A stretch of 64,000 nucleotides of DNA from a candidate division WWE3 bacterium (GTDB lineage: Bacteria; Patescibacteriota; 4484-211; GCA-002791395), in assembly GCA_013335095.1 (NCBI GenBank), contig JAAXWF010000001.1, positions 292,268 through 356,267 on the forward strand, written 5' to 3'. The notes beneath the pieces are model-generated. The model saw only the letters and a list, made by a program, of their open reading frames with translations. It had not been told where the DNA came from and searched no databases. Both the position numbers and the translations under genes were made by a program. Positions 14,535 to 63,726 of this stretch are shown in pieces. Position 1 is the first letter of the stretch, and every line of letters begins with the position of its first letter.

Positions 14535-14769
14535 GACCTTGAACCTCCTAAATAAGATTGAAACGTGCCAGTGCCTCCGGCAGGGGATAAACCGCACCGT
14601 AGGCTTAATTTAAGTATACCGCTACCATACCCTATAGCAAGTTGCCGATAGTGCGAAATTTGTATTCCTATAGTTATTGCGGTAATTGTGCGGGAAATAT
14701 CATTACCTTGTTCATGCATAACCTTGATCAAATACACAATCAATATGGTTATTATGTTGCGGTTAGGAG

Positions 14770-17645: not shown

Positions 17646-18221
17646 TTAGCGCGAAGGTCGAAGGACCTCGACCATGATCTGCTCTTTTAGGGCGGTTATC
17701 CCACCCTGCGAGAGCTTCTCGGTGATGAGGTCATGTCCGAGACCTGACCGTGCCGCCGCTGACCTCGCCCTCATCATATCGCCATATTGGCGGATGAGGT
17801 CTTCTACCGGCTCGTAGCCGGTGAAGCACTGGCCGAGCGTCATTGCGAGCAGGTTGGCTGGGATGCCGACCCGACGAGCCTGTATACGAAGGCTTTCCCG
17901 ATACTCACGTTCGGTAAGGTAACCTTCGTCCTCGTCTGGTTTCGGACGATGCCCGTTGAGCCGGTTGGTGCCGGCGAACCAGGCCGCTAGTTGTGCAATC
18001 TCTGGCTCGGTGGCTGCCCGTTTCGGGTCAGTTTTTCGAGTCAAAGCACACAGCTGAGCGGCGAGCTCGATGAACTCCCGGTCAACGATTATCGTGACCG
18101 GCTTGGGCTGGGCGATCGGCCGAGCCGGTCCCGACAACCCTTGACGCTTGAGCAGTTCGAGCGTTTTGGTTTTTCCGCCTCTAGCACCGTTATGTTGGTG
18201 CTTCCGTTGGGTGGTGGTCAA
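17646..18221 (-). CDS. Hypothetical protein (GC-rich island gene A)
   Basis: About 65 % GC. AAGGAGG RBS 5 nt upstream of a TTG start at 18221 (the ORF track extends to 18287). A consensus sigma70 promoter TTGACA-N18-TATAAT lies on the minus strand at 18258-18287. The product is Ala/Arg-rich with no recognised domain. Confidence 0.5.
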   Translation of the reverse strand: MTTTQRKHQHNGARGGKTKTLELLKRQGLSGPARPIAQPKPVTIIVDREFIELAAQLCALTRKTDPKRAATEPEIAQLAAWFAGTNRLNGHRPKPDEDEGYLTEREYRESLRIQARRVGIPANLLAMTLGQCFTGYEPVEDLIRQYGDMMRARSAAARSGLGHDLITEKLSQGGITALKEQIMVEVLRPSR

Positions 18222-18257
18222 GCCGACCTCCTTTGTTTTCAAAGAACTCGTTTTTAT

Positions 18258-18287
18258 ATTATAGGATAAAGATGTGTGTGTTGTCAA
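18258..18287 (-). promoter_or_regulatory. Consensus sigma70 promoter for island gene A (TTGACA N18 TATAAT on minus strand)
   Basis: Reverse complement of 18282-18287 is TTGACA and of 18258-18263 is TATAAT; the RBS and TTG start follow about 35 nt downstream. Confidence 0.5.
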
Positions 18288-18393
18288 AACGAAAAAACCC
18301 GGCCCTTTTTTCGCTCCCGAAGGAGAAAAATAGGTACCGGGTTGTGAAGAAGGGGACTGTGGTTAAGCCCCCTCCCTCTTCCGACTTAGCGAA
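18288..18393 (-). repeat. Structured repeat element copy 1 (UUCG-tetraloop hairpin nested in ACCCGG/CCGGGT stem) directly after stop of island gene B
   Basis: Shares about 90 nt with 19408-19504: ACGAAAAA(A)CCCGGCCCTTTTTTCGCTCC...GGAG...AGGTACCGGGT..GTG...CCGACT.GCGAACTA.GCC. The inner stem loop is CUCC-UUCG-GGAG on the minus-strand RNA. Confidence 0.55.
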
Positions 18394-19059
18394 CTAGGCC
18401 GCGGCCAGCTCGTGCTCGTGGATCACGGGCATCGGGCAGGTGCGCACCGGCTCCGGGGCCTTCTTGGCGGCGATGGCCGCCTCGAGGGCCGAGAAGTCGA
18501 CCTCACACTCCTCCTTGAGGATGCGGGTGACCTCGTTGGTGTCGATGCCAGCATCGGCGGCCTGCTTGCGCAGCTTGGCCAGGAGAGTGTGGCGGTGGTT
18601 GTCCGCCTTCTTCTTGGCCTCGGCCTTTTCGACCTCGAGCTCGGCGCGGCGCTCGATGAGCGCGCGCTTGGCCAGGCGGAACTCGTCGTCCCAGCCTCGG
18701 GCAATGATCTGCCCGAAGTTGGCCTTGCCCATCCCGAGTTCCTCGGCCTGCTTAAGCAGCGACCGCTTGATCTCGATGAGCTTGGTGTGGCGCAGCTTGG
18801 CCTGGTAGCGCTGCTCATAGAGCTTTGCCACCTCGGCGAGGGCTTCGGCGTTCTGCGCCTGGGCGACCTCGTCGACGCGGTACTCGATGCCGCGGTCGTG
18901 GCTCCAGTTGAGTAGCGCCAGCTTAGCCTTGAGCAGCATCAACTCCTCGAACTCCATCTCGCTGCCGTTCTTGCTCGTGAGCCCAGCGCGGCGGGCGCGG
19001 GGGCCGATGTCGGCGCGGAGACGGATGAGCTGGCTCTGCTGGCTGTTGTCGGTAGTCAT
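18394..19059 (-). CDS. Hypothetical coiled-coil protein (GC-rich island gene B)
   Basis: 221 aa at about 68 % GC; GAGGAG RBS 8 nt upstream of ATG. Charged/Ala-rich heptad segments (KRALIERRAELEVEKAEAKKKAD). Confidence 0.5.
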   Translation of the reverse strand: MTTDNSQQSQLIRLRADIGPRARRAGLTSKNGSEMEFEELMLLKAKLALLNWSHDRGIEYRVDEVAQAQNAEALAEVAKLYEQRYQAKLRHTKLIEIKRSLLKQAEELGMGKANFGQIIARGWDDEFRLAKRALIERRAELEVEKAEAKKKADNHRHTLLAKLRKQAADAGIDTNEVTRILKEECEVDFSALEAAIAAKKAPEPVRTCPMPVIHEHELAAA

Positions 19060-19228
19060 GGGAGATTCTCCTCATGCATGTGGGGCATCTGCCCCATATC
19101 TTGACCACTAGGTCTCCATAAGACTGGGCGAGCCCTTTTTAGGGGGCGGCCCATCATTCCGACGGGTTGAGGGCGTGAGCCCTCTCCGAACCCCCGAAGG
19201 GGTCCCAAGTTACCCCGCCAGGCGGGTT

Positions 19229-19282
19229 ACTATGGGTGAACCAACTTGTCGATCTGTATCAACCGGTTAATTCACCCATAGT
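19229..19282. repeat. 12-bp perfect inverted repeat ACTATGGGTGAA...TTCACCCATAGT with 30-nt spacer, upstream of island gene B
   Basis: Read directly from the sequence. A second copy of the same arm sequence with a different spacer lies at 20366-20431 upstream of gene C. Confidence 0.6.
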
Positions 19283-19407
19283 TGTTCGCATTTACTTTGA
19301 AAAGTACGGTGTAATAACGTGTGTGTTATTACGGCAAACGGTTCTTATATTATAGCGAAATAGGGGATAAAAGTCAATTGCTATGGGGTAGTTGTGCGTA
19401 GCGTATA

Positions 19408-19504
19408 ACGAAAAACCCGGCCCTTTTTTCGCTCCTTGCGGAGGAATTAGGTACCGGGTGGTGGTGGGAGTCCCGGAGGACTCCCGCCGATCCGACTGTG
19501 CGAA
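19408..19504 (-). repeat. Structured repeat element copy 2 (GCAA-tetraloop version) directly after stop of island gene C
   Basis: Same element as 18288-18393; the inner hairpin here is CUCC-GCAA-GGAG on the minus strand, a compensatory GNRA loop in place of UUCG. Confidence 0.55.
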
Positions 19505-20179
19505 CTACGCCACCTTCTTGCCCTTCTTGCCACCGCCCTGCTTGTGCAGGGGCTGCTCGTTCGAGGGCCCCTTGGGGTTGGGGTTGCCGACGTTGGTGCG
19601 GCCACCCGGGGCGCGGTGCTGGGCGCTGGTGGCCTGCTTGGCCTCGATCTGGTCGAGCCAGTCGGTGAACAGCGCGTAGTTGCGCTGCGCGACGGCCTCG
19701 GCGAGGCGGGTCTCGCGGGTGCGGGTGTCGATGCCCATCTTCTTGGCGCGGAGGAGCAGGAAGCCGCGGTAGGTGCGGTCCTGCTGCATCTCGCGGATGC
19801 GCTCGTCGCGCTCCGTGGCCTCGGCCTCGAAGGTGCTCTTGGCGACCGCCTGCTGGGCGGCCTTAGCCTCGAGCTGGACAGCCTGCTCGCGCTTGGCGAT
19901 CCGGGCCTTGTAGCCCTTCATGCCGTTGGCGCGCTGGCGGAGCTTCTTGGCGTCCTCGGGGCAGATGCCCACGAGGTCGAAGAAGCTCACGTCGTTCAGG
20001 CCGACCGACGTGGTGAGCTCGAACAGCTCGAACGCCGCGTCGAGCGCGGCCTGGTCGATGCTGTGGAGCCTCATGACGATCTTCGCCCGGTCGGGGTTGC
20101 CGACGTTGGGGACGATCCCGAGCTTGCTGGCGCGGCTGACGTTGCGGGCGCGGAGCTCGAGGGTGCTGTTCGTCGTCAT
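19505..20179 (-). CDS. Hypothetical protein (GC-rich island gene C), distant paralog of gene B
   Basis: Start taken at MTTNSTLELRARN (the ORF track begins 16 codons earlier). Its N-terminus shows limited similarity to gene B (TT.S..L.LRA....RA..G). About 66 % GC. Confidence 0.45.
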   Translation of the reverse strand: MTTNSTLELRARNVSRASKLGIVPNVGNPDRAKIVMRLHSIDQAALDAAFELFELTTSVGLNDVSFFDLVGICPEDAKKLRQRANGMKGYKARIAKREQAVQLEAKAAQQAVAKSTFEAEATERDERIREMQQDRTYRGFLLLRAKKMGIDTRTRETRLAEAVAQRNYALFTDWLDQIEAKQATSAQHRAPGGRTNVGNPNPKGPSNEQPLHKQGGGKKGKKVA

Positions 20180-20365
20180 GGTAGGGCCGTTCCTTTCTGC
20201 GGGGGCGAGAAGCCCCCCTAGAGCCACCTGATGTGGTGGCCTCCTGGGCTAGGGACACAGCGACGCGCTGGTCCCTCCTGGGGTAAATGGTGGGTTTAAC
20301 CCCACCGGTGCGGCAAAGGTTGCCGCTCCACCCAACCGGGCGTGGGTTTCCCACGTGCCGGCCAT

Positions 20366-20431
20366 TTATGGGTGAATAGAGGCGCCTAGGAGGGCCCCAA
20401 TAAAGGGGTAAGCACCTCTGTTCACCCATAA
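20366..20431. repeat. Inverted repeat TTATGGGTGAA...TTCACCCATAA (about 44-nt spacer) upstream of island gene C
   Basis: Same arm sequence as the inverted repeat at 19229-19282; its inner part carries an additional imperfect palindrome (AGAGG.GC / GCACCTCT). Confidence 0.55.
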
Positions 20432-20597
20432 AAGCAGGAAAAAGGAACGAAAGGACTACCAATAAACGTAGTTCTTAAGTCGTGATGAAAATGTGCAAAG
20501 GGTATCTTATAAAAGTACCCCGTAAGCCCTGATAAGAGCTTACGTAATTATTATAGGGCATATTAGTGCCGAAAGTCAAGAGTTATGGGGTATAGAA

Positions 20598-21753: not shown

Positions 21754-23148
21754 TTAGACTCTTAGCCCTAGCTCTGCGATCCAGTGCTCGGTGATTGCCC
21801 GGGTTCGTTCTACCGCCTGACCCAAGTAGTGTGTGGGGTCGTCAAAAAGCTGAAGCTCGGCCGGTTGGAACTGCCGCAAATACGGCTCGAGCGATGTGGT
21901 CTTTTGCGCAACCATGAGCAGTGTCTCGTTTGGAACAAGCGAACGACGCATCTCGTTGGTTACGAGTCTAACCGCCTCATGTGCATCTGGATGGCCGTAT
22001 TTGGCCAGCAGAATGTATAGCGGTTCGGCCATGGTTAAATCGGCCATGAACGAAACGTTGGCGCTCATTTGGCGTCGGTTTACCGCCAACTTTCGCATCG
22101 CCCGGTTCAGTCGAGTAATCATATTCGCCAGATATGCGACGATCTCGACCATTGTTCGGCCCGACGCCGATCCGGTTAAATCCCGCTGATGCTCGCTGAT
22201 CTGGTCAAGCATCACCGTGACCATTCTTCCTACAAGTACCTTCCATTGGCTCTCGATCTGCTCGAACGTGATCGGGTTCTTTTTGTGCGGCATGGTCGAT
22301 GATCCGACGTCCGCTCGACCCTGAACTTCTCCGACCTCATTGATTTCGGTGCGTTGCAGATGCCTCATATCGCGGGCAATATTGGCCAGGATTCCTCCGG
22401 TAAATGCCAACTCATTCATCAACCGCATCATCGGCTCGGGGGGAGCGATCTGGGTTGAATGAATGTCGCTCGAAAGACCAAGAGCCGACATTACCACCTG
22501 CTCATGGGCGAATCCATCGTCCACAACGAGCTGCATCGCGTTGTACGAACCAACCGCTCCGGAAAACTTACCGACCAATTGTCCGGTAAGCGTCGTGAGC
22601 ATGTTGATCGAATTGCCGAGTCGGTTGATGTATCCACATACGGTGAACCCGAATGTGACCGGTACGGCATGCTGACCATGGGTTCGGCCGATCTGGATGG
22701 TGAGCGCCTCGTTTTTAGCGATAGCGACGAGCGTCTCCAGCAGATCAATAAGCCGAGGGATAATCACATCATCCATCACTTCGGTCATGCGCAGCGCATT
22801 GGCCGTATCGATAATGTCGTATGACGTTGCCCCGAGATGGACGTACTGCCGCATATCTGGGGGGAGTAGCGACGTGAATACATTCACCAGTGCCCGGATG
22901 TCGTGATGGATTCGATCCTCTTCGGCATACACCGCTTCGGTCGTAACCTTTTGGCTTGCCTCAAGTGCCGCCTGGCATACCTCATCGGTGCAGACCCCGG
23001 CATCGCATAATGCGCTTAAGTGAGCAAGTTCGACACGTAGCAGATATCCCGTGAATGCTTCTGCACTAAGTCTCTTTGCGACCTCGCTATCATAGTAGCG
23101 ATAATCGAGCGGCGATATGGCATCAAATCTTCCCGATCTCTGAGTCAT
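21754..23148 (-). CDS. purB: Adenylosuccinate lyase
   Basis: N-terminal ISPLDYRYYD motif and fumarate-lyase signature GSSTMPHKKNPITFE; 464 aa. Confidence 0.75.
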   Translation of the reverse strand: MTQRSGRFDAISPLDYRYYDSEVAKRLSAEAFTGYLLRVELAHLSALCDAGVCTDEVCQAALEASQKVTTEAVYAEEDRIHHDIRALVNVFTSLLPPDMRQYVHLGATSYDIIDTANALRMTEVMDDVIIPRLIDLLETLVAIAKNEALTIQIGRTHGQHAVPVTFGFTVCGYINRLGNSINMLTTLTGQLVGKFSGAVGSYNAMQLVVDDGFAHEQVVMSALGLSSDIHSTQIAPPEPMMRLMNELAFTGGILANIARDMRHLQRTEINEVGEVQGRADVGSSTMPHKKNPITFEQIESQWKVLVGRMVTVMLDQISEHQRDLTGSASGRTMVEIVAYLANMITRLNRAMRKLAVNRRQMSANVSFMADLTMAEPLYILLAKYGHPDAHEAVRLVTNEMRRSLVPNETLLMVAQKTTSLEPYLRQFQPAELQLFDDPTHYLGQAVERTRAITEHWIAELGLRV

Positions 23149-37174: not shown

Positions 37175-37297
37175 TAGATAGTAGTCATTCTAATCTATTT
37201 TAATGATTTGTTGAGGTGGAAACGATTTGATACTATACGGGAGCTGTTAATAGGTTCTTCACCATCGGGTGAAGACTATTTGAGTGGAGGTGGCCGT

Positions 37298-38026
37298 ATG
37301 GATACGACAATGTCGTTGCTACCTGTCGGTTTCCCGTTCATTCCCGTATCGGATGGTTCTACCCTGGCCTTGAGTCAATCCGCTCGGCTACAAGCCCTAT
37401 TGGGGGCTGGCGTCGTGGTGCGGTTAGCTGATGATGTATATCAGCACGGCTCTGTTTATCGGATCGATCACCCAGAACTGATCGGATGTGAGGATGATTG
37501 GATCCTCATGGCATGTGTTGAGCAGATGTATATGCCGGGGCGCTTGGCTGCGGCAAACAATCTGTTCATCGTCTCAGCTGGTAGGTCAGGGTATTGTCCT
37601 ACCGATGAGGAGTCGCCTGCCCTTGCGGATGACGAACTGTTTTGTGAGCAGGCTTCGGATGGTACCTGCCGGCGGTTTAAGATCTTGGCCCAGCCCGAAC
37701 ACATGCCCGACTGGCTGGCGACGGCATATCGTCGTCAGCTGAGTGCGTTTACCGTAAGGGGATTTCGTATCTTTGCTCTCTCGTCCAATAATGAGTCTCG
37801 TTTCACGGTCGTGATGCGTTGCGGTACGAAATTCGAACGGGATATGTTCCTGCATGCAATCCGGTATTTTACCGGCATGCTGGATGTTCGGATTGTTAAT
37901 CAGGACTACCTAGAATCGGGTGCGGTGAATATGATCATCGTCTCCCTTTCGGGGTTTGATAATAATCTTCGAATCCTAATTAATAAGATTCGGGATGCGT
38001 TCTTTTACGATATCGTGATAATGTAA
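37298..38026 (+). CDS. GC-rich paralog family A, member 1 (hypothetical)
   Basis: Start at MDTTMSL with a GGAGGTGG RBS (the ORF track starts at 37208). Shares HPEL...W.L.AC.EQ...PGR.AA.N.F.V, MPDWLATAYRRQ, GFRIFA and RDAFFYD motifs with members 2 and 3. About 58 % GC. Terminator at 38051-38085. Confidence 0.55.
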   Translation: MDTTMSLLPVGFPFIPVSDGSTLALSQSARLQALLGAGVVVRLADDVYQHGSVYRIDHPELIGCEDDWILMACVEQMYMPGRLAAANNLFIVSAGRSGYCPTDEESPALADDELFCEQASDGTCRRFKILAQPEHMPDWLATAYRRQLSAFTVRGFRIFALSSNNESRFTVVMRCGTKFERDMFLHAIRYFTGMLDVRIVNQDYLESGAVNMIIVSLSGFDNNLRILINKIRDAFFYDIVIM

Positions 38027-38389
38027 GGATCACGATTCGTTGGTATAAACCCGGCCGTCTACCCTAAAGTAGGCGGCCTTTTTTGTTATACTAGCTTCCT
38101 TCGGGTGCGACGGCGGAGAAACTGTGTGGGAATGGATACTCCTGATGGATCTTACAACGGTATTGCCAGCGGATATTCCATTTGTATTTGTTTGCTCGTG
38201 TATGCCGATCGATCGGGTATTGTGTTTGTGTCGGTATATTTCCGATGCGTACTTTTACAATGTTCGATGGGTGTAACGTACAAATTTTACCGTCTAATTA
38301 ATTTAGACGATACTATGTCCTATAGTTCTGGTATAATTGATTGTGCTAATTGGGCAAGTGGAGATTCGTTGATACGAAAGGGGTTTCGT

Positions 38390-39118
38390 ATGTCGGAGGC
38401 GACTCTGTTGCCAGAAGGGTGTCCGTTTCGGATGACGCTTGGGAATCACGGTTTTACCCGTGAGCAGCTTGAGCAGCTCGATGCCCTTGTTGCGACAAGT
38501 GTTGTTGCCGGCCCATTTGGGGCTATGTCTAGCACCTACCAGTACTACTACGTCGATCATCCTGAGCAGCTCGGGGTGGAACACGAGTGGCTTGTTAAGG
38601 CTTGTATCGATCAGTTCTTTGATCCTGGTCGGCAGGCCGCGACTGATAACTGGTTTGCAGTCGGCCGTGAAAGAGGCCAGTGCCTGCCCACTGCGGAGCA
38701 GTGGCCCGATCTCGAGCGTCCGGAGATTGTGGCCGAACAACGGGACGTCGGCCACAGCACCCTCTATCGGATAGCTGTTGCGCCGGATCTGATGCCGGAG
38801 TGGTTGGCCACGGCATTTCGTGTCCAGGTGAGTGATGGGGAACTCCGAGGGTTTCGGATCTTGGCTACCCAGTCAGATCCTCAGGGGCGTCCCCAGATCA
38901 TCATCTACACGACTTCACCCTATATGAGGAATCTTTTCCTCGCCGCTTGCCGATATTATTCGGCGCAAATGGGGATACCGGGGCCGTTTCTTGTAGGTCA
39001 GGATCAGAACTCTCGTGAATATTATGCGGCGATCCAGTCGCATGAGTCACTGGAGGTCGTCCGGCCGATGTGGGAGAGGGTGCGCGACGCCTTCTTCTTC
39101 GAACTTAAGATGGTGTAG
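38390..39118 (+). CDS. GC-rich paralog family A, member 2 (hypothetical)
   Basis: Start at MSEATLLPEG, preceded by the conserved leader GGGGTTTCGT-ATG-TCGGAGGCGACT (the ORF track starts at 38105). Motifs HPEQLGVEHEWLVKACIDQ, MPEWLATAFRVQ, GFRILA, RDAFFFE. Followed by the terminator GGCCGCC-tgaaatat-GGCGGCC at 39141-39178. Confidence 0.55.
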   Translation: MSEATLLPEGCPFRMTLGNHGFTREQLEQLDALVATSVVAGPFGAMSSTYQYYYVDHPEQLGVEHEWLVKACIDQFFDPGRQAATDNWFAVGRERGQCLPTAEQWPDLERPEIVAEQRDVGHSTLYRIAVAPDLMPEWLATAFRVQVSDGELRGFRILATQSDPQGRPQIIIYTTSPYMRNLFLAACRYYSAQMGIPGPFLVGQDQNSREYYAAIQSHESLEVVRPMWERVRDAFFFELKMV

Positions 39119-39252
39119 TTCGTCGCTGTCGACTAAACACGGCCGCCTGAAATATGGCGGCCCTTTTCTTTTTTTTTTGAAATAACCCATAGTTTTTGAT
39201 ATACTTACCGTACCGTAATTCGGCTTATGGATTATACGGAAGGGGATTTCGT

Positions 39253-40038
39253 ATGACGGAGGCAACTATGTTGCCGGCGCTGCCGGAAGGAATGGTTATT
39301 CGGTTTGCATTGCAGCCGAATGATCCCGAATACCCGGAGCTCTCTGCGGATATGGAAGCGGCGCTTGAAAATCTCTTCAACTGGGATGTCGTCAAGCTCT
39401 CATCCGTTGTGCGGTCAGGGAGTCGGCCGATGCTGTCATGCTATGTGGGCAGATCGGATCTTGGATTCCCGCAATGGTTGTACGAGGAGGCGGTTCGCCA
39501 GCTTGGCCTGATTGGCCGGCGAGTCCAGTTGACAAACTGGTTGTGGGTTGGGCACACCGAAGGGTGTGTCTGGCCCAGCAATGAGCAGTTCGCCGAGCTT
39601 CATCAGTTGCTGGATGGCGGCATCGTCCGAGAGGACCTGCCACTTGAGCATCGTTGGCGCTATCACGTCCGCGATGCAAGCCGACTGCCGGAGTGGTTTA
39701 TCAAAGCCCACCGGCAGCAGTGCTCTCAGGGGCGGGATTTCAGCATTCAGCTTCATCTACCCAGCATCGAGGTTGGGCAGGGTGCCATGCTGACATTTCG
39801 CGGTGGTTTGACCGAAGAGCTCCATGCGATTCTGCGGGTGGTCGAGTACCATTCGCGAAAGGTGGGGCTCAACGCAACTCGAACGCGGTTCGAGATTATG
39901 GAGCGTCCAGGGATGAGTAAGATCATCGTCTGGGAACTCGTGTGTTACGGGTCTGAAGACCTGGTCGCGTCCCTGCGGCAGCTGGCCGAGGCCATCTCGG
40001 TAGCGTTCTACTACGACGTGGTCGTGGTAGAGCCGTAA
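39253..40038 (+). CDS. GC-rich paralog family A, member 3 (hypothetical)
   Basis: Start at MTEATMLPALPEG, preceded by the leader GGGGATTTCGT-ATG-ACGGAGGCAACT (the ORF track starts at 39196). Motifs LPEWFIKAHRQQ and VAFYYDVVVV. An identical terminator copy lies at 40067-40094. Confidence 0.55.
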   Translation: MTEATMLPALPEGMVIRFALQPNDPEYPELSADMEAALENLFNWDVVKLSSVVRSGSRPMLSCYVGRSDLGFPQWLYEEAVRQLGLIGRRVQLTNWLWVGHTEGCVWPSNEQFAELHQLLDGGIVREDLPLEHRWRYHVRDASRLPEWFIKAHRQQCSQGRDFSIQLHLPSIEVGQGAMLTFRGGLTEELHAILRVVEYHSRKVGLNATRTRFEIMERPGMSKIIVWELVCYGSEDLVASLRQLAEAISVAFYYDVVVVEP

Positions 40039-47176: not shown

Positions 47177-47253
47177 GGGCGCGTAACTCAGTTGGTTAGA
47201 GTATCAAGCTTATACCTTGAAAGTCCCTGGTTCGAGTCCAGGCGCGCCCACCA
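47177..47253 (+). tRNA. tRNA-Ile with anticodon UAU (ATA-decoding), CCA encoded
   Basis: Manual fold: acceptor GGGCGCG/CGCGCCC, D-arm ACTC-AGTTGGTTA-GAGT, anticodon stem TCAAG/CTTGA with loop CTTATAC (anticodon TAT), T-arm CCTGG-TTCGAGT-CCAGG, discriminator A, CCA. Confidence 0.7.
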
Positions 47254-47699: not shown

Positions 47700-48447
47700 T
47701 TTATCATTTATTGAGTACGAAGATTATTAGATTATAAAATTCACGGACTCTATCTATATATAACATTGCACCTCCTCCTACAAGAAAGTACGGTGTCGCT
47801 TTGCCTAAATTAATAGCCGCATTCTCTACGTATGGCTCAATTGCATGAACTAAAAACCACTTGAATAATCGGTCTCGTTTGTTTGGGGTTGTGTATTTTT
47901 TCTTCATCATTCTATTCGTATCTTACAAACTAAGTGCCCGTTTCTTATATATTTCAGTTTTTAGCAATTTCTCCGTTGGTGCTCTTACTTCTTATGATTA
48001 AAATTGCTGGGAAGTACTCCATGTTCTATAAGATCACTCTACTTGCCTGAGTTATAAAGATAACGACTTTGCTTTTTGATTCGCGTATAAAAAAAGCCGC
48101 TCCTGTATATCTCAAACTCTTTCGAGTTCCCGGACTAAGTTCTTTTCTTTAGTTCGGTAGATAGACACGAGCGGCGCCTTTTGTTTAGGTAGCCTCCTCT
48201 TGATTTGAATTTATTATACCACCAGTCCGGTTGATTGGTTGAGTCATGTTAGATGTGTTTGTCGATTGCTTGGAGTGTTTGCTAATTGTTGGGTCGGTTA
48301 AATCGCTGCAACTTTATCGTAATTTTCTTTGAAGAATGAACCGTCACCGTAAAACCAGTGGTGCACTCCTATCTTGATGCAAGCTGTTCGCTTATAGATA
48401 TTTATGGTTATTGCAGAGCTTGTATACTCCGACTTGAGGCCTATAGT

Positions 48448-48476
48448 TTGACGATTTTGTGCTTTTCCCGTATACT
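48448..48476 (+). promoter_or_regulatory. Sigma70-type promoter TTGACG-N17-TATACT for family B member 1
   Basis: Preceded by the CCTATAGTT motif; the GCCAC putative +1 follows the -10 hexamer. Confidence 0.55.
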
Positions 48477-48519
48477 AAAGCCACTTCATGTCCGTGGAAT
48501 TAACTAAAGGAGGTAGCCA

Positions 48520-49302
48520 ATGGCTACTATTCGAGGACGGAGTCTTGGACGGCTAAAGTTTGCCGAAGTCGAAGAGCTTTGCCCGATCCGGTGCGTGATT
48601 CACGACCAGCGGGTGACCCGTGATCAGATCGTTCATCCCGCTCCGGCTGAAGGGCGACTGATCAACAACCGAGGCTTCGCGTATGGCGAACTGACGAGCT
48701 CAGTTCAGGGGCCATTTCTGGTTCTGAATCATCCGGGTCTCTACAAGGGTACCAGGATGGTTCATTATGGCATGCACCAACAGCCCCTGAATTTCGAGGC
48801 TATTGAGGGGTATGAGATCCTCGAGGGTGATGTTCCCTCATTCGATCTCGGCATGCTTGAGCCTCGGCCGAATCGTCCCGCCGATGTGCGGGGGTGGAGC
48901 CTGTATGCCTACCTCACCGAGCGGTTCGGCAAGCATGACGCCGTGCTTGTCACCTGGCACAAGCCGGATGGCCGCCTCTACGACAGAGGTTTTTGGCCTA
49001 CCTATTTTCCGGTGACGCCGTCCGGGTTCGATCAGATTGCGGCACGTGAGTTGTTGGGGGAAAGCTATGTGCATAACCCCTACGGCCAAATGCCTGTGTC
49101 TTTGATCGAGCTGCTGATTGGCGGCCAGCTCGAGTACGTTGTACCTGGGAATCCGATCCCAGGAGATGTCCCGGCGACAGTCCAGATCTGGCCCAAAGCC
49201 AGACGGCTGGAGCGCTCGGATGCGTCCGTGATATGGGTGCAAGTCTCGGCCCACGCGCGGATGTTTGATGACATGGCTCCGGGAGCCATTAGTCTCGCCT
49301 AA
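48520..49302 (+). CDS. GC-rich paralog family B, member 1 (hypothetical; no zinc ribbon)
   Basis: AGGAGGTAGCC-A-ATGGCT start context shared with members 2-4. N-terminus MATIRGRSLGRL...ELCP and core LNHPGLYKGTRMVHYG are shared with the other members. About 60 % GC. Terminator at 49321-49350. Confidence 0.55.
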   Translation: MATIRGRSLGRLKFAEVEELCPIRCVIHDQRVTRDQIVHPAPAEGRLINNRGFAYGELTSSVQGPFLVLNHPGLYKGTRMVHYGMHQQPLNFEAIEGYEILEGDVPSFDLGMLEPRPNRPADVRGWSLYAYLTERFGKHDAVLVTWHKPDGRLYDRGFWPTYFPVTPSGFDQIAARELLGESYVHNPYGQMPVSLIELLIGGQLEYVVPGNPIPGDVPATVQIWPKARRLERSDASVIWVQVSAHARMFDDMAPGAISLA

Positions 49303-49364
49303 GTTATTTCGAAAACGGAAAGGCAGGGGAAATTCCTCTGCCTTATTTTTTATTAACCCATAGT

Positions 49365-49393
49365 TTGACTTGTTCATTACTTTTTCTTATACT
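49365..49393 (+). promoter_or_regulatory. Sigma70-type promoter TTGACT-N17-TATACT for family B member 2
   Basis: CCCATAGTTTGACT...TATACTAATGCCAC; the spacing was counted by hand. Confidence 0.55.
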
Positions 49394-49435
49394 AATGCCA
49401 CATTTCGTATCGGAGACTATATAAGGAGGTAGCCA

Positions 49436-50497
49436 ATGGCTGCTGAGTTGGATACGGGAAATTTGTCCGATAAAACCTGGCGCGAGATCGCAGGGTTGTG
49501 TCCGTTGTCTGTTCGACTGATGCAAGGTCCCCTCGATGATTCCGTTTCGATCATACATCCAAACGGGACCGAAGGGGAGTTGACCGTCGTAATCCATGAT
49601 AACGGCTGGATTTTTCGCCATTCTGCCCTGCATAATGGCGAGGTGCAGATACCAGCGGCAGAGGGTGATGCGACACCGGCGGCATCGAGGATATCTCTTC
49701 GGATTTATGAAAATCCGGTGGTGGTGTGCCCAGTGTGTAGGCATCGTAACGACCCGACTTATCGATATTGTGATAACTGTGGGGCTGACCTAAGGTTTGG
49801 TGATGAGCGACGAGGGGCACCACGCGCTAAACCGTGGGTTGATAAACAGCCCTATCTTGCCGAACCGTTCCAGCCTACATTTGTCTCTCAATGTCCGGCA
49901 TGTGGGGCCTCGACTTTCGGGTATGAACAGTTCTGTGATAGTTGTGGGGCTCATCTTCGTCTTGGGAAGGCCACTATTAACCCACAGGGCGATCAGGCAC
50001 TCCCGCTTATTGCTTCCGCACCAGCTTCTTTTCAGTTGGAGCTAAACCCAAGTGTGGTGTTGCATACCACAACTTACAGGGAGCTGAAGCGGCGTTTTGG
50101 TGAGCACCGTGGAGTGTATATCACCTGGCAGGTGAGTTCTGGGGGCGCCCGGTATGGAGGTAATTACCCGTCGATAGTTTTCGCGGTTGACCCTGATGAG
50201 ATGCAGCGCATCGTAGCTCTGTCGGGTTACGGTAGCCGATGTCGGGTTTTGCCATACTCTTCAATGAACGACGCCTTAATTGCGCGTTTGCTCTCGGAAG
50301 AGGTGGTACAAAACCTCCCGATTCCACCCGAAGTTTCAAACATTCGGGCGGGGTTTGACGTCATGAGCGGACTTGCTTTGCTGGTGCAAGATAATGAAGC
50401 TCAGGTGATTGCTGTCGTTGTGGGAACCCATGCACTGCCATCTGAACTTCGTCGGCTGGGGTTGATCTCTGACGAAGAGGGTCCAGCCTCTGCCTAA
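49436..50497 (+). CDS. GC-rich paralog family B, member 2 (two zinc-ribbon modules; hypothetical)
   Basis: Double zinc ribbon CPVCRHRNDPTYRYCDNCGADL and CPACGASTFGYEQFCDSCGAHL. The C-terminal block RCRVLPYSSMNDALIARLL...ELRRLGLISDEEG is shared with member 3. Terminator at 50515-50540. Confidence 0.55.
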   Translation: MAAELDTGNLSDKTWREIAGLCPLSVRLMQGPLDDSVSIIHPNGTEGELTVVIHDNGWIFRHSALHNGEVQIPAAEGDATPAASRISLRIYENPVVVCPVCRHRNDPTYRYCDNCGADLRFGDERRGAPRAKPWVDKQPYLAEPFQPTFVSQCPACGASTFGYEQFCDSCGAHLRLGKATINPQGDQALPLIASAPASFQLELNPSVVLHTTTYRELKRRFGEHRGVYITWQVSSGGARYGGNYPSIVFAVDPDEMQRIVALSGYGSRCRVLPYSSMNDALIARLLSEEVVQNLPIPPEVSNIRAGFDVMSGLALLVQDNEAQVIAVVVGTHALPSELRRLGLISDEEGPASA

Positions 50498-50558
50498 TTC
50501 ATGTGTGCGATGTTGCCGGGGAGAAATCCTCGGCTTTTTTATATCTATACCCCATAGT

Positions 50559-50587
50559 TTGACTTGTCCTTTGTTTTTTCTTATACT
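50559..50587 (+). promoter_or_regulatory. Sigma70-type promoter TTGACT-N17-TATACT for family B member 3
   Basis: CCCCATAGTTTGACT...TATACTAATGCCAC. Confidence 0.55.
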
Positions 50588-50629
50588 AATGCCACTTCGT
50601 ATATCCTGGATTATCTAAGGAGGTAGCCC

Positions 50630-51616
50630 GTGGCTATCAGAGGTCGCTATCTTGGTCATTCCCGCTTGTTCGATCTTGCGGCGTTAACTCCGCTCGAATG
50701 CGAGTTACGCTATGCACTGCCGTCAGACCCGGAAGCCTTGCTTCCATCAGACGCCGACAGTCCTGATCCGTACATTCCGGGAACGTTGACCCTCGATTTT
50801 GAGGGTGAGGGACTGGACATGTTGGTGTTACGCCATCCTGGACTTAAAGGTGGCGAACTGCGTGTTCCATTTGGTGATCGCGAGAATCCGCTGACCCATT
50901 ACGGGGTTCAAGTGTTTGCTTTGATCGAAGGCACTTTCCGCAGCACCTGCCCGATGTGCCATGCTCCCAGTGTGGTCCCTGAACAGCGCTTTTGTGAGGC
51001 GTGCGGTGCGAGCCTCGTGGTCTCATTTGGACGACGACGGCAAACCGCAGTGAGTAGCATCATGCCGTGGGGGACGTCCGACATCGACTATGAAGTGGGT
51101 GCAGGGCGAGTTCTGGGACCGAACATTACTGTTGCCGCTGTTCCCCTCAAGGTTAAAGCATCCCATGGGGATGCGTTACCGCCTGAACTCATCAAATTTG
51201 AGGCTCACCTGGTGTATCGGGCGCTGAAAAAGCGAGTCGGTCACCACCTGGCGATGGGTGTGGTATGGCGAACCGAAAATGGTAGCGATGATGAGGAACT
51301 GTGTTTTCGTCCGTTGCTTTTCGCCATGGATGTGGGCCTGGCAGCGGACCTTGTATCACAAGGTTCTCATGTCGTTCGTCGATATCGGGTGCTACCGTAT
51401 TCCGATATCAATGAGGCGCTCGTTGCTTTGCTGGTTGATGATTCTCGCCAACAGCACCAGCTTGCCAGTGTCGATGGGAGACCAGCCGTGCTGGAAGTGT
51501 TTGAGTCAGTGATTTCGTTGAATTCACAACTGGAATATCCGGTTGTTTCGTTGATTATTTCAGCAAACGCTCACCCAGACGAGCTCGCTCGACTTGGGCT
51601 TTTGTTTGCTGACTAA
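50630..51616 (+). CDS. GC-rich paralog family B, member 3 (one zinc ribbon; hypothetical)
   Basis: GTG start in the same AGGAGGTAGCC context. Motifs MAIRGRYLG, RHPGLKGGELRV, CPMCHAPSVVPEQRFCEACGASL, RYRVLPYSDINEALVALLV...ELARLGLLFAD. Terminator at 51638-51664. Confidence 0.5.
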   Translation: MAIRGRYLGHSRLFDLAALTPLECELRYALPSDPEALLPSDADSPDPYIPGTLTLDFEGEGLDMLVLRHPGLKGGELRVPFGDRENPLTHYGVQVFALIEGTFRSTCPMCHAPSVVPEQRFCEACGASLVVSFGRRRQTAVSSIMPWGTSDIDYEVGAGRVLGPNITVAAVPLKVKASHGDALPPELIKFEAHLVYRALKKRVGHHLAMGVVWRTENGSDDEELCFRPLLFAMDVGLAADLVSQGSHVVRRYRVLPYSDINEALVALLVDDSRQQHQLASVDGRPAVLEVFESVISLNSQLEYPVVSLIISANAHPDELARLGLLFAD

Positions 51617-51676
51617 TCAGTTGTATCGGTAAACCAGGCCGGGGAGAAATCCTCGGCTTTTTATTAATCCTATAGT

Positions 51677-51705
51677 TTGACTTTATCCCGGATTTTCTTT
51701 ATACT
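51677..51705 (+). promoter_or_regulatory. Sigma70-type promoter TTGACT-N17-TATACT for family B member 4
   Basis: CCTATAGTTTGACT...TATACTAAAGCCAC. Confidence 0.55.
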
Positions 51706-51755
51706 AAAGCCACGTCATAAGTCTGGAGCGCTTCGGCGCGTTACGGAGGTAACCG

Positions 51756-52277
51756 ATGGTTATCACTAGTAGGTCGGATTTAAACCGACTGCCAATCGGG
51801 GAGATCGGACGGATGTGTCCTATGTATGTGGAACTCGCACAAATAGGACCAGAGGACTATGCCCCTGGCGTAGATAGTTCGGGGCATCCCTGTCAGAAGG
51901 CCACCTACAACTATGTTAAGGGGTGGCTAACGGCAGAGGAGATCCCGCACTTCTGGGTGTTTCGGCATCCCGGGTTGAAGAACGGAAAGCTTCGGGTCTC
52001 TGCATTCAATTCGGATGTTAAGCCGGGATTCTACAACGTTGCCCTGTATCGCTGTGACGCCCCGGCTGTGGTGGCGTCAACTCCGCCGGCTGAGTGCCCC
52101 AACTGCGGGGCGCCTATTCCGCCGGATCCTGCCGTTCGCTTCTGCGACGTCTGCGGGACATCGCTTGAGCCAATGCCTGAGTCGGCGACGCCGAATGGAC
52201 GATTTCAGATCGGGGTGAATGCCAAGATCACCTGCACCCCATCAGGCATATCAATCGTCTTCAACGTCGACGAGTAA
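51756..52277 (+). CDS. GC-rich paralog family B, member 4 (short form, one zinc ribbon; hypothetical)
   Basis: Motifs RHPGLKNGKLRV and CPNCGAPIPPDPAVRFCDVCGTSL; 173 aa, lacking the C-terminal block of members 2 and 3. Confidence 0.5.
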   Translation: MVITSRSDLNRLPIGEIGRMCPMYVELAQIGPEDYAPGVDSSGHPCQKATYNYVKGWLTAEEIPHFWVFRHPGLKNGKLRVSAFNSDVKPGFYNVALYRCDAPAVVASTPPAECPNCGAPIPPDPAVRFCDVCGTSLEPMPESATPNGRFQIGVNAKITCTPSGISIVFNVDE

Positions 52278-52414
52278 CGTTCACTATTCGCGTCGGTCAA
52301 AACGGGGCAGGGGATGGTTTATCCATCCTCGGCCCTGGGATTATATTTTTCCCGGTTTGTTACAATACATCTGTTGATACACTAGCCCATTAACCATGGC
52401 TTGGAGGTAATTCT

Positions 52415-53185
52415 ATGGAGGCCCAAGGATTTAGCCTGGTCCCATCCTTAGATGGTTCTCAGTCGATGCCGGAGGTATGGTATCGATTTATGGATGGGCA
52501 ACTCGAGCTCCGTTTTACCGGACTTGAGCCGTTTGCTCTGCCGATGCGACTTGTGCTTGGCGGTGGATTTGGTGGCTACCTTTTTACCACTGGACTGCAT
52601 AATCTCATCGACCTGTACTACCTTTGCCACTGGCTTGCAGCCATACAAGGTACTCCGGGCGAGATGATCGCGGCATTCAGTTATGAGTACGACCCTGATA
52701 ACGTCATGGTCCAACGAGTTGCGGCATTGTTTAAACAGTACCGGAGCCAGCTCAAACTGTTGCGTAACCAGATCGATCAGCGCTATGAGCGAATACTCGG
52801 AGCGACTAATCCCGCGACCGATCCGGGCTCGGGGGCGATTGGGATCATCGAAATTGATGGTGAATCATATTTCGAGGTTAATGCCACGCGACTTGAAGGA
52901 TCTGATGCCTTCTCGGCAAGCATCCTGCTACCCGTTGCGGCAATGCCACTGCTCTTGAGTTTAAAAGAGCAGGAAGATCAGGGGCCCTTTGGCTTCTATC
53001 TTCAAACGGTAACGGAACTGATCGGTGATTCGGTGGATATGCTCATCTGGCTATTCCACACGAATATGTTCAATCGTCCTGTATTGGAACTCTTGGAGGT
53101 TCCCACTCCCACCCGCATCTTCCTCGACCTACAGTACCAACTTGTCCAGCAAGTTATGGAGGTGATTAGGTCTTCAAGTCAGTAA
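52415..53185 (+). CDS. Hypothetical protein (GC-rich)
   Basis: 256 aa with a GGAGG RBS, same strand and composition as family B but no shared motifs. Confidence 0.45.
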   Translation: MEAQGFSLVPSLDGSQSMPEVWYRFMDGQLELRFTGLEPFALPMRLVLGGGFGGYLFTTGLHNLIDLYYLCHWLAAIQGTPGEMIAAFSYEYDPDNVMVQRVAALFKQYRSQLKLLRNQIDQRYERILGATNPATDPGSGAIGIIEIDGESYFEVNATRLEGSDAFSASILLPVAAMPLLLSLKEQEDQGPFGFYLQTVTELIGDSVDMLIWLFHTNMFNRPVLELLEVPTPTRIFLDLQYQLVQQVMEVIRSSSQ

Positions 53186-53242: not shown

Positions 53243-53545
53243 TTAACTAAATAACACCCCAAAAACGACAAGGGCGTTAGCAATAGTATTCAGGCTGTTG
53301 GCGATGATTAATGGTCTGTTTTGCGTCTGTAATCCGTAAATTGTCCAGCATAGAGCTAGTATGGTGTAGCCCATCCACGATAATACCGAAACTCCTTGGG
53401 TGTTCTGATTTATCCAGATTCCAATAATTTGAGGTACGGCTATTAAAGGTTGGATTATCGCAACGATGTAAATAAAAAAATGATGTGGATGATTACTAGT
53501 CGAAGTATTTTTTTTCGCCACCAATGTAAGAGTAACAGAATTCAT
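53243..53545 (-). CDS. SemiSWEET-type (PQ-loop) sugar transporter half-unit
   Basis: 100 aa with three transmembrane helices. The TM1 PQ motif LIAVPQIIGIW and the ...WTIYGLQTQNRPLIIANSLNTIANALVV block match the canonical SemiSWEET pattern (W..YG....D/N.P.I.AN). Confidence 0.6.
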   Translation of the reverse strand: MNSVTLTLVAKKNTSTSNHPHHFFIYIVAIIQPLIAVPQIIGIWINQNTQGVSVLSWMGYTILALCWTIYGLQTQNRPLIIANSLNTIANALVVFGVLFS

Positions 53546-53654: not shown

Positions 53655-54671
53655 ATGGCCGCAGGTTCAGAAGTTCGCCAGCTTGCAGTTAAGGCAGCTG
53701 CGATCATTCAGGCCGAACCGGATACCCACATTCAGCACGATCGAATTGCCGAGATCGTCGGTCAGGTTATTGCTGATGCTGGGGTCGTGAATGCAAAGCG
53801 AAGGGGGATCGCTGCTCGGATTTTAACCGAGCTCACGGAGTATTGCGGTTTCTGGCGTTATGCGTCAGTGTGGGTCACCTTACCCAGACGTTCATCTGAT
53901 TGGATGAACCATGGGAAGGGGGACTTTGTCGTTTTTTGGACCTTACATTTCTTTGGTCCACAGAAGCTAGACGCACTCAATGCTCTGTATTTAGTGTGTT
54001 CTGCGTCACCTAAATCCCTACCGGATGGTTTTAAAGACGCTCTTAATTCACTTATGACCAGTAAGTGGATTGGGGTGGATGAAGGCGATGATCTGATCGC
54101 ACTGACTGAATGCGGTGAAATGCTGGTTAAGCTTTCGCTTGCAACTGAGGTCGATCCACAGCTCATCACTCAAGTTGTCCGACTGCGCCACTCACTCGGT
54201 TTTCGATATGGACGCGATACCCAAGATTGGTTTCGCAACTTGGGTGTCGGCGATTGGAAGAGCAAAGGTCCGGGTAAGCCCTCGCAGCTCACGTGGGCAG
54301 ATCATGCCGTGCAGGATATCGTCGTTGAAGAAGCTGGGGGACAGGCCAGGTACTCCGGTACCTCTTTGCTGCATCGATTGCCGCTAGACTCTGCTGCACA
54401 GTTGGTGCTGGGTAAGATCGTCGCGCTGCTCGTTCAATACGGCAGCTGGGCGATCCGCAAGGAGGAGCTCCTCCGTGAGATGTATGGGGGCGGTTGGGGT
54501 ATGTCAGTGTGGACGCCCTCTGAATTCGTCGAAGCAGTAATTGGCTACCTCATCAAGACGGGCCTGATCGTCTGTTACTCTCATAAAGTAACGGGTCAGG
54601 AGTGGTTTTGTTTAGCCCATTGTCAGCTACACGAGACGCTCATCGATCAACTCGATTTGGTTCGTAGCTAA
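53655..54671 (+). CDS. Hypothetical protein (GC-rich), flanked by the two SemiSWEET-like genes
   Basis: 338 aa with an AAGGAGG RBS; Trp/Gly-rich with no recognised domain. Confidence 0.45.
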   Translation: MAAGSEVRQLAVKAAAIIQAEPDTHIQHDRIAEIVGQVIADAGVVNAKRRGIAARILTELTEYCGFWRYASVWVTLPRRSSDWMNHGKGDFVVFWTLHFFGPQKLDALNALYLVCSASPKSLPDGFKDALNSLMTSKWIGVDEGDDLIALTECGEMLVKLSLATEVDPQLITQVVRLRHSLGFRYGRDTQDWFRNLGVGDWKSKGPGKPSQLTWADHAVQDIVVEEAGGQARYSGTSLLHRLPLDSAAQLVLGKIVALLVQYGSWAIRKEELLREMYGGGWGMSVWTPSEFVEAVIGYLIKTGLIVCYSHKVTGQEWFCLAHCQLHETLIDQLDLVRS

Positions 54672-54726: not shown

Positions 54727-55056
54727 TTACATAACAAACCCTTTTTGTAAAACCAAACTAATAAATACAATAATTGTTGATAATAAATTCAGAGCATTGA
54801 GGATAATTAATATTTCGTTTCGTGAATAAATTGTGTATATAAACCAACTTAAAGATATTAGTCCATAACCTCCAAACATCACGATCGAGAGTGATTCTAT
54901 CTTATGAAAACCCAACACCTCAACCAGCTGCCAGGTATTCATTATTAATATTCCACTTGTTACTAAATATGGCGAAAGTTGGGAGAATGGTAGTTTTTGA
55001 AGCTTGTGATTAATTTTACTAATAATGCGTTTCATAGGCCATTTATAGAGTATCAA
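54727..55056 (-). CDS. Divergent SemiSWEET-like three-helix membrane protein (PQ replaced by WQ)
   Basis: WFIYTIYSRNEILIILNALNLLSTIIV aligns with the SemiSWEET TM2-TM3 block of the 53243..53545 gene; the TM1 motif reads NTWQLVEV. Confidence 0.45.
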   Translation of the reverse strand: MILYKWPMKRIISKINHKLQKLPFSQLSPYLVTSGILIMNTWQLVEVLGFHKIESLSIVMFGGYGLISLSWFIYTIYSRNEILIILNALNLLSTIIVFISLVLQKGFVM

Positions 55057-62847: not shown

Positions 62848-63726
62848 TTATAGTTCTTCTAGGCTCAGGCTTCGATCGCCATTCATATCGAGGTGTTCAA
62901 GGTATTTTTCTGTAGTGGCTAATCTCTTATGGCCTGCCATTTTTGAAATTGTTACCAAGCTAGTACCTTGTTTTATATGATGAGCGATCCATGTGTGACG
63001 TAAGTCGTTGACTTTAGCATGCTCAATACCAGCTTTTTCATAATAACGGTCAATGCTTGCGCGTATATTACGAACTAAGAGTGATTTACCAGTTCGAGTA
63101 ACAAAGAGGTGCTCATCTTCGGTCTGTGGTCGTTCTTTTAGATAATCTTGAATAGCCTGTGTTGCGGCTTTATTCAACGGTATTTTTCGACCTAGAGTTG
63201 TTCGAGATTCAGGAATATTTAATGTACCGGTACCAGTTTGATCATCTACTTCAAGATCTTGTGTCTTAATTCGTGCTAATTCGCCGATTCGAATACCGGA
63301 TTGGAGTAATAACTCGATGATCGCATATGTTCTTCGATCATCGCGGGCAGCATCTCTGAGGGCTCGATACTCGGTTTTTGTGAGTATACGAGGTGGAGGT
63401 GTTTCAAATTTAGGATGAGGAATAACAACTGATGGATCTTCGACAACCAGTTCATTTAGTTTCAAAAATCTAAAAAACGTTTTGATTGAGTTAATTTTAC
63501 GAGAGATGCTTTTTTTCGTATAGTTTTCGTCATCTAAGCTAGATAAAAACGATTTTATATCGTCTGTCTGGATGTGGTGGACATGTGATTTCTCACTTGT
63601 TTTATTTATATGATGTAGTAACTGCTCAATGTCTTTTCCGTAAGCAAGAATGGTTGATTCTGCACGATCTTTATTCGAGAGAAATGAGACGAACTGGGCA
63701 TGAGCTTCCTCAAATTTTATCATCAA
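62848..63726 (-). CDS. Tyrosine site-specific recombinase (XerC/XerD-like)
   Basis: C-terminal catalytic motifs ...LRHTWIAHHIKQGTSL...GHKRLATTEKYLEH (R-H-R-Y arrangement) and an N-terminal SAM-like core-binding domain. Confidence 0.75.
   Translation of the reverse strand: MMIKFEEAHAQFVSFLSNKDRAESTILAYGKDIEQLLHHINKTSEKSHVHHIQTDDIKSFLSSLDDENYTKKSISRKINSIKTFFRFLKLNELVVEDPSVVIPHPKFETPPPRILTKTEYRALRDAARDDRRTYAIIELLLQSGIRIGELARIKTQDLEVDDQTGTGTLNIPESRTTLGRKIPLNKAATQAIQDYLKERPQTEDEHLFVTRTGKSLLVRNIRASIDRYYEKAGIEHAKVNDLRHTWIAHHIKQGTSLVTISKMAGHKRLATTEKYLEHLDMNGDRSLSLEEL

Follow-up and report, generated by a model that had tools for sequence, protein, structure and literature searches.

A window of 64,000 nucleotides (the whole stretch of DNA that was analysed), taken from a 536-kb contig of a candidate division WWE3 bacterium within the candidate phyla radiation (CPR), contains an array of four related genes on its forward (+) strand. 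These genes, here named B1 to B4 and collectively family B, are deposited as genes of hypothetical proteins. Each of them forms a separate unit that runs from its own promoter to its own terminator (Table 1). The initial annotation of this DNA had described such independent units, and the co-directional open reading frames (ORFs) have the lengths and, for B3, the GTG start it had given. Its estimate of ~60% guanine plus cytosine (GC) was too high, the coding GC being 53-58%.

Four genes assembled from shared modules

The proteins of family B are built from an N-module of ~95 residues, which is rich in β-structure, and an α/β C-module of ~140 residues, between which zero to two four-cysteine zinc ribbons are placed on flexible linkers. 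The layouts are N-C in B1, N-Zn-Zn-C in B2, N-Zn-C in B3 and N-Zn in B4, with a cysteine-less stretch in B3 at the position of the second ribbon of B2. They support the modular gain and loss that had been proposed. The claim that the four genes are divergent paralogs also holds: BLASTP connects B2 with B3 over the full length (4e-19), B2 with B4 (2e-14), B3 with B4 (8e-12), B1 with B2 in the C part (7e-10) and B1 with B3 in the N part (5e-9). With module hidden Markov models (HMMs), whose alignment itself includes B1-B4, B1 is found at 1.2e-25 for the N-module and at 4.8e-51 for the C-module. Concerning the short signatures the initial annotation was partly right. The MA.IRGR block considered as common to the family is present in B1 and B3 but not in B2 and B4, the (R/N)HPGL(K/Y)(G/N)G core is degenerate in B2 (RHSALHNG), and the C-terminal module ascribed to members 2 and 3 is found in both of them but in B1 as well.

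Zinc ribbons had been assigned to members 2-4, one or two each, and a regular expression for CxxC...CxxC units indeed detects two in B2, one each in B3 and B4 and none in B1. Among known profiles only these ribbons were matched. The double zinc ribbon family DZR (PF12773) recognises B2 with 38.3 bits (1.5e-9), above its gathering score of 27.3, and P0004, an ortholog from another organism described below, with 31.7 bits; B3 (18.7 bits) and B4 (23.1 bits) stay below this cut-off and B1 is unmatched. For the N- and the C-module no match was obtained in PHROGs, PADLOC or NCBIfam, and comparing each member of both module alignments with Pfam at E ≤ 10 revealed no recurring weak family. Conservation is restricted to single histidine, cysteine, tyrosine and glycine positions, which do not form a catalytic-looking set. 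A CCCH zinc site in the N-module was considered and dropped, only Cys21 and the histidine of the HPG motif being consistently conserved. All four proteins are acidic and soluble, and no transmembrane (TM) segment, signal peptide or lipobox was found in them.

An AlphaFold model of B2, calculated from a 16-sequence alignment, has a mean predicted local distance difference test (pLDDT) value of 78, with most of both modules at 87-97 and linkers of low confidence. In this model the N-module is mainly β and the C-module α/β. Prediction of B3 from its single sequence was uninformative (pLDDT 36). Foldseek searches with the model returned nothing significant in the PDB (best E 0.1) or in BFVD (best E 0.06), profile searches of PDB sequences were empty save for one repeat artefact, and SH3- or PH-like themes were weak and below significance. 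Reading the C-module as a cysteine peptidase of the papain/C39 type was rejected, the scores being weak and no cysteine being conserved. As far as predicted structures go, both modules are thus shown to have no described family and no significant structural neighbour, and the earlier statement that the architecture matches no described system is borne out by family and structure searches alike.

Two of the deposited proteins appear truncated. The entry for B3 (P0002) comprises only the last 184 residues, starting from Met145, because the GTG start was missed, and the entry for B4 (P0005) has 151 residues from Met23. The longer forms are supported because the ribosome-binding site (RBS) is conserved and the N-modules can be aligned. 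In practical terms, the database entries for these two array genes need correction.

Table 1. Positions of the family B genes and of their regulatory elements in the window.
Feature	Position	Strand	Description
B1	48520-49302	+	ORF, 260 residues; N-module joined directly to a divergent C-module, zinc ribbon absent
B2	49436-50497	+	ORF, 353 residues; degenerate N-module, ribbons at residues 98-115 and 153-170, canonical C-module
B3	50630-51616	+	ORF, 328 residues, GTG start; N-module, ribbon at residues 107-125, Cys-less stretch, C-module
B4	51756-52277	+	ORF, 173 residues; canonical N-module, ribbon at residues 114-133, short tail, C-module absent
B1 promoter unit	48440-48484	+	CCTATAGTT, -35 TTGACG (48448-48453), 17-nt spacer, -10 TATACT (48471-48476), then AAAGCCAC
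B2 promoter unit	49357-49401	+	CCCATAGTT, TTGACT, N17, TATACT, AATGCCAC
B3 promoter unit	50551-50595	+	Promoter scan, repeat family
B4 promoter unit	51669-51713	+	Promoter scan, repeat family
B1 Shine-Dalgarno/start-codon hairpin	48512-48528	+	GGTAGCC-AAT-GGCTACT, ATG at 48520
B2 Shine-Dalgarno/start-codon hairpin	49428-49444	+	Folding prediction
B3 Shine-Dalgarno/start-codon hairpin	50622-50638	+	GTG start at 50630
B4 Shine-Dalgarno/start-codon hairpin	51748-51764	+	GGTAACC-GAT-GGTTATC; one G-C pair replaced by A-T relative to B1-B3
B1 intrinsic-terminator-like hairpin and T-run	49320-49354 (hairpin 49320-49344)	+	Terminator scan
B2 terminator and T-run	50515-50540 (hairpin 50515-50534)	+	GCCGGGGAGAAATCCTCGGC; terminator scan
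B3 terminator	51636-51663 (hairpin 51636-51659)	+	Terminator scan
B4 imperfect hairpin	52305-52335	+	Core GGC(A/C)GGGGA...TCCTCGGCC; T-run not directly adjacent; missed by scan

Conserved regulatory DNA around old coding sequences

Upstream of every family B gene the element CCYATAGTT is fused to a near-consensus promoter of the form TTGAC(G/T)-N17-TATACT. This arrangement had already been noticed and was confirmed by a promoter scan, in which the four family B promoters are the sole 10/12 matches between 47000 and 55200. The 50-nt promoter block recurs as a family of four repeats. For TATAMTARWGCCAC, four occurrences compare with 0.12 expected, and for GGAGGTARCCNRTGG four with 0.02. In the complete upstream regions the blocks CC-ATAG-TTGA, TATA-TA--GCCAC and GGAGGTA-C...TGG are invariant. 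CCYATAGTT itself is found eight times in the window (0.9 expected), always on the + strand, and may serve this genome as a common upstream promoter element or as the site of a regulator. The four copies outside family B are located at 14667, 19275, 38319 and 39186 (+).

The RBS-start context had been described as identical in all genes, apart from the GTG of member 3, but in B4 three positions differ (CGGAGGTAACCGATGGTT). In all four genes RBS and start codon constitute a palindrome, for which a hairpin of 7 bp is predicted whose loop contains the start codon; P0004 would form a 5-bp version. Calculated folding energies of the initiation regions range from -6.7 to -10.1 kcal/mol, compared with a mean of -3.2 (standard deviation 3.0) for 33 other genes of the window. 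Among the five sequences 97% of the cells of this hairpin pair, and one pair is changed on both sides, from G-C to A-U in B4. In Rfam 15 no leader or riboswitch match was obtained at E ≤ 1 over 47700-52450, and the only matches reaching the gathering score were tRNAs. The predicted hairpin argues for gated translation and against simply maximal expression, and it tempers the strong expression that the initial annotation had proposed.

At the 3' side, where a hairpin terminator had been postulated for each gene, terminator-like hairpins were detected behind B1, B2 and B3, but the one behind B4 is imperfect, has no directly adjacent T-run and escaped the scan. The terminators of B2 and B3 are identical over 25 nt, and all five (B1-B4 and P0004) share the core GGC(C/A)GGGGA...TCCTC(G/T)GC.

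The coding sequences present a very different picture. Identity between paralogs at the third codon position is 22-35%, which is the random level, and protein identity amounts to 29-48% over locally aligned segments and falls as low as 16% for individual modules. The 80 nt upstream of the starts are nevertheless 69-88% identical, P0004 included. Since third positions are saturated, the duplications must be old and do not reflect recent diversification. Saturated codons beside near-constant upstream DNA further imply that the regulatory unit has been held by selection, its promoter, transcription-start region, Shine-Dalgarno/start region and terminator core having remained almost unchanged. The label "rapidly evolving", given to the family in the initial annotation, has therefore to be replaced by ancient divergence, and it is the constraint on the regulatory DNA that stands out.

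In the course of this divergence the copies are shown, by their module layouts, to have apparently lost parts in complementary ways. B4 retains the canonical N-module without a C-module and B2 the canonical C-module together with a decayed N-module, while B1 would have lost the ribbons and B3 carries a single ribbon in place of the two of B2.

Relatives in other organisms and the proposed role

Relatives were sought with a word-indexed search of 5.8 billion proteins, which matched almost only the genome's own copies, and with an exhaustive HMMER profile search of 1.84 billion representatives, which gave 75 proteins at E ≤ 1e-3. Most of these 75 align best at the ribbon columns, and those three that were read (P0010-P0012) are generic multi-ribbon proteins. 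The only full-length ortholog outside the window is P0004 (358 residues), which originates from a different organism and sample and stands alone there. It shares promoter, leader hairpin, RBS/start context and terminator core with family B, and its leader contains a GCGC-tetraloop hairpin as does that of B4. Its N-module is 48% identical to B4, 52% to the stand-alone protein P0008 and 30% to B2, and its C-module 52% identical to B2. As far as can be judged from the sequences, such a mosaic could have arisen in two ways: a P0004-like ancestor was duplicated and its copies decayed in complementary fashion, or cassettes recombined.

Beyond P0004 the two modules occur separately. Seven N-only relatives have 81-103 residues, and P0006 (264 residues; locus L016, 853-1647) consists of two tandem N-modules (HMM domain E 3.5e-31 and 6.2e-25, both repeats being part of the HMM seed); its gene adjoins a PFOR operon in a genome of 56% GC. 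C-only relatives were three at the beginning (154-175 residues) and five after further search. An N-terminal hydrophobic helix is present in four of these five, in P0013 and P0042 according to numerical evaluation and in P0076 and P0077 according to reading of the sequence. Zinc ribbons are absent from all N-only and C-only homologs, and the genes of these distant homologs lack the promoter design of family B. The homologs outside the window are single-copy genes in the contexts of mnmA, recA-recX-rny, SmpB, PFOR, thrS-infC-rpmI-rplT-pheST/truB and dnaE, and no recurring partner gene was found among these loci. Generic zinc ribbons aside, no described family takes in family B. The single-copy homologs reside in core-gene neighbourhoods. 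HMM scans of every fetched outside locus revealed no hidden paralogs, so the tandem fused array is specific to this genome. One of the C-only genes (P0044) is positioned between recA and a tRNA gene (L006 4669-6321, L007 4944-6565); past this tRNA gene each of the two contigs continues with a different large serine recombinase, and another three contigs stop there. This looks like a tRNA integration hotspot that lies beside P0044 and does not enclose it.

Further collections yielded no relatives. This holds for IMG/VR (searched with tighter alignments), for 50,697 INPHARED phage genome records (blastn), for the PLSDB plasmids and for 185,579 GTDB species representatives, among which the single match, in a metagenome-assembled genome of Rhodanobacteraceae, was spurious (antisense, out-of-frame, 23 residues). 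A metagenome scan for the regulatory pattern gave eight chance matches, none of which encodes either module, and the literature on WWE3 and on double zinc ribbons contained nothing specific to family B. In the sequence databases family B has to date turned up in no more than this WWE3 genome and a few uncultured CPR-like genomes.

We consider as best explanation, with a probability of roughly 60%, that the array consists of four tandemly duplicated whole transcription units encoding soluble cytoplasmic proteins of a rare WWE3/CPR-like family. All four copies would respond to one transcriptional input, and the hairpin, which holds the start codon together with the last nucleotides of the Shine-Dalgarno sequence, would gate translation. 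With no catalytic-looking residue set conserved, the products would be binding or adaptor proteins rather than enzymes, in which the ribbons would tether both modules to a nucleic-acid or protein partner. N- and C-modules would act together. This is suggested by their being fused here and encoded by separate genes elsewhere, and by the probable membrane anchoring of four of the five C-only homologs. In this explanation the array counts neither as mobile or phage DNA nor as a defence element.

Several points weigh against it. The function is deduced only from missing catalytic signatures and from the presence of zinc ribbons in the sequences. The covariation score of the hairpin is not significant, being matched by 99 of 500 shuffles with only five sequences, and the palindrome of the start region could also be a DNA operator instead of an RNA hairpin. 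Local gene conversion may add to selection on the upstream DNA; it is proposed because upstream identity is higher between B2 and B3 (87%) than between B2 and P0004 (75%), even though at the protein level B2 resembles P0004 more than B3. Finally, GC-rich genes just downstream of two tRNA genes may point to horizontal acquisition.

Should the promoter element and the start-codon hairpin truly act as control points, they would give an access, seldom available in uncultured phyla, to the regulation of genes. CPR bacteria account for much of the diversity of bacteria, yet annotation is missing for most genes specific to their lineages. The present locus defines two confidently folded domains without detectable relatives in sequence or structure and shows them in fused, split and membrane-tethered forms; both are candidates for new domain-family entries and structural work. 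Moreover, it provides a case of regulatory DNA outlasting coding sequence across paralogs and organisms. A bolder version, which we regard as rather improbable, would see in the N- and C-modules two new folds forming a CPR-specific pair, fused via ribbons in WWE3 and split into soluble and membrane-anchored proteins elsewhere. In this lineage a dedicated regulon element (CCYATAGTT/-35, -10/GCCAC) would govern the pair together with the start-codon hairpin, the junction between the units would possibly be a recombination module, analogous to a promoter-carrying cassette platform, and the whole would be linked to episymbiosis.

Genomic setting, alternative readings and known systems

The proteins of the window, including DnaA, MutL, Lon, PurB, a DHODH-VKOR fusion, sortases and an Xer-type recombinase, indicate a bacterial chromosome. 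Its background GC of ~40% is interrupted by several GC-richer islands, and one such block (~48.4-54.7 kb) starts ~740 bp past the genes for tRNA-Ile(UAU) and tRNA-Ala(CGC), which are located upstream of the array. GC at third codon positions (GC3) is 0.50-0.64 in family B and 0.29-0.41 in core genes; the genes downstream of the array, N5 and N6, are further GC-rich ORFans, and P0004 shows the same contrast in its own surroundings (57% GC versus 43% in the flanks). The array could accordingly have arrived by horizontal transfer as cargo of an integrated element since degraded, for instance the remnant of a prophage or island at the 3' side of tRNA-Ala, and serve that element rather than the cell. 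We hold this to be unlikely, since neither an integrase nor a phage-like gene nor an att-like tRNA 3' repeat was found (of the last 25 nt of tRNA-Ala a single copy was found, even with up to 3 mismatches allowed), the intergenic promoters and terminators have a host-like GC of 36-47%, and IMG/VR, phage and PLSDB searches gave no viral or plasmid relatives. In addition, purB (GC3 0.61) and two glycosyltransferase genes are as GC-rich as family B, so this genome is a mosaic in which composition alone is no proof of recent transfer, and N6 lies between two host-type paralogous membrane-protein genes.

Some observations on this neighbourhood may be added. N6 (53655-54671) has its small membrane-protein neighbours on the opposite strand (53243-53545 and 54727-55056, E 4.6e-6) and looks as if it had been inserted into a duplicated gene pair. 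That N5 and N6 are cryptic members of family B was rejected (hhalign probability <1%). Just 5' of the array, at 48096-48175, there is a stable Y-shaped structured element (-38 kcal/mol, z ~ -4.2 on both strands), flanked by an A-run and a T-run and without match in Rfam, which may encode a small RNA or act as a terminator in both directions into which hairpins are inserted. The tRNA-Ile gene at 47177-47253 has the anticodon UAU, which is uncommon in bacteria, where AUA is usually decoded by a lysidine-modified CAU tRNA. The DHODH-VKOR fusion protein is encoded at 15250-16824 (-) and purB at 21754-23148 (-), the latter being an example of compositional mosaicism that reaches core genes. Within the region 17646-20462 (-) two ORFs (18394-19059 and 19505-20227) without Pfam match have GC3 values of 0.92-0.96 in a genome of 40% GC and look strongly foreign by composition; terminator-like repeats are found around them at 18293 and 19411.

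The initial annotation had favoured a diversifying effector, immunity or anti-defence family. Under such a view the copies would serve this episymbiotic CPR bacterium as a tandem arsenal, their divergence being driven by conflicts with hosts, competitors or phages. The tandem arrangement, extreme protein divergence (18-31% identity), GC-atypical genes adjoining tRNA genes, very narrow distribution, gain and loss of modules and the one C-only homolog whose neighbours are a tRNA gene and a large serine recombinase are all in line with this proposal. Nevertheless, it seems to us fairly improbable. In PADLOC-DB v2, B1-B4 match no family at E ≤ 1 and N5 has only a 12.7-bit match to BrxB, and in PHROGs matches are confined to the ribbons. 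No relatives occur in the viral, phage and plasmid collections named above, and no integrase or att repeat is adjacent. The proteins have no secretion signal, TM segment, toxin-like or enzymatic domain and no recurring partner gene, and the outside homologs are single-copy genes in core-genome neighbourhoods. The saturation of synonymous sites explains the divergence by age, accelerated protein evolution not being indicated.

It is very unlikely that the terminator-promoter junction (~130 nt) works as a functional repeat that promotes recombination and cassette exchange in the manner of promoter-carrying gene cassettes: the junctions are far more conserved than the cargo and more similar within than between genomes, terminators identical over 25 nt bracket B3, P0004 combines a B4-like leader and N-module with B2-like ribbons and C-module, and a second array has repeated terminators and CCYATAGTT in the same style, but a dedicated recombinase is missing next to the array (the nearest of the tyrosine type, at 62848-63726, is Xer-type and 10 kb off), the cargo genes are mutually homologous so that simple duplication would do, complementary decay accounts for the mosaic equally well, and the metagenome scan revealed no other cargo behind the junction. 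This second array (37208-40038, +) comprises three paralogs (BLASTP 3.6e-42 and 5e-11) that are unrelated in sequence to family B. The two of them that were scanned have no Pfam match, near-identical terminators are found at 39141 and 40068, CCYATAGTT precedes at 38319 and 39186, and the true starts are likely ATGs near 38432 and 39293. It follows the same style of conserved regulation and divergent cargo.

Four known systems can be compared with an array of duplicated transcription units as preferred here. With DZR (PF12773)/Zn_Ribbon_1 proteins family B has the CxxC-x9-13-CxxC units in common, and B2 passes the gathering score. Typical DZR proteins carry their ribbons at the N-terminus of membrane proteins, whereas in family B the ribbons are short linkers and the signature lies in flanking modules without Pfam model. 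The vlp, vsp and vsa arrays of Mycoplasma, which encode variable surface lipoproteins, resemble family B in their 5' regulatory conservation, in conserved first codons followed by divergent sequence and in one promoter per gene. Unlike them, family B has no signal peptide or lipobox, no long homopolymer in the promoter spacer (the longest being T5-T6), no internal coding repeats and no invertible element. Integron arrays likewise contain co-directional single-gene units with conserved structured junctions, but the units of family B have their own promoters (10/12, sigma-70-like), their junctions contain a G+C-rich terminator with T-run and, by eye, no GTTRRRY core, no IntI is adjacent and the cargo is paralogous. 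With the general model of duplication, degeneration and complementation of tandem paralogs family B shares differential retention: the N-module in B4, the C-module in B2 and both in the P0004-like form. In that model the regulatory regions are normally the parts that become partitioned, yet in family B they are the most conserved ones.

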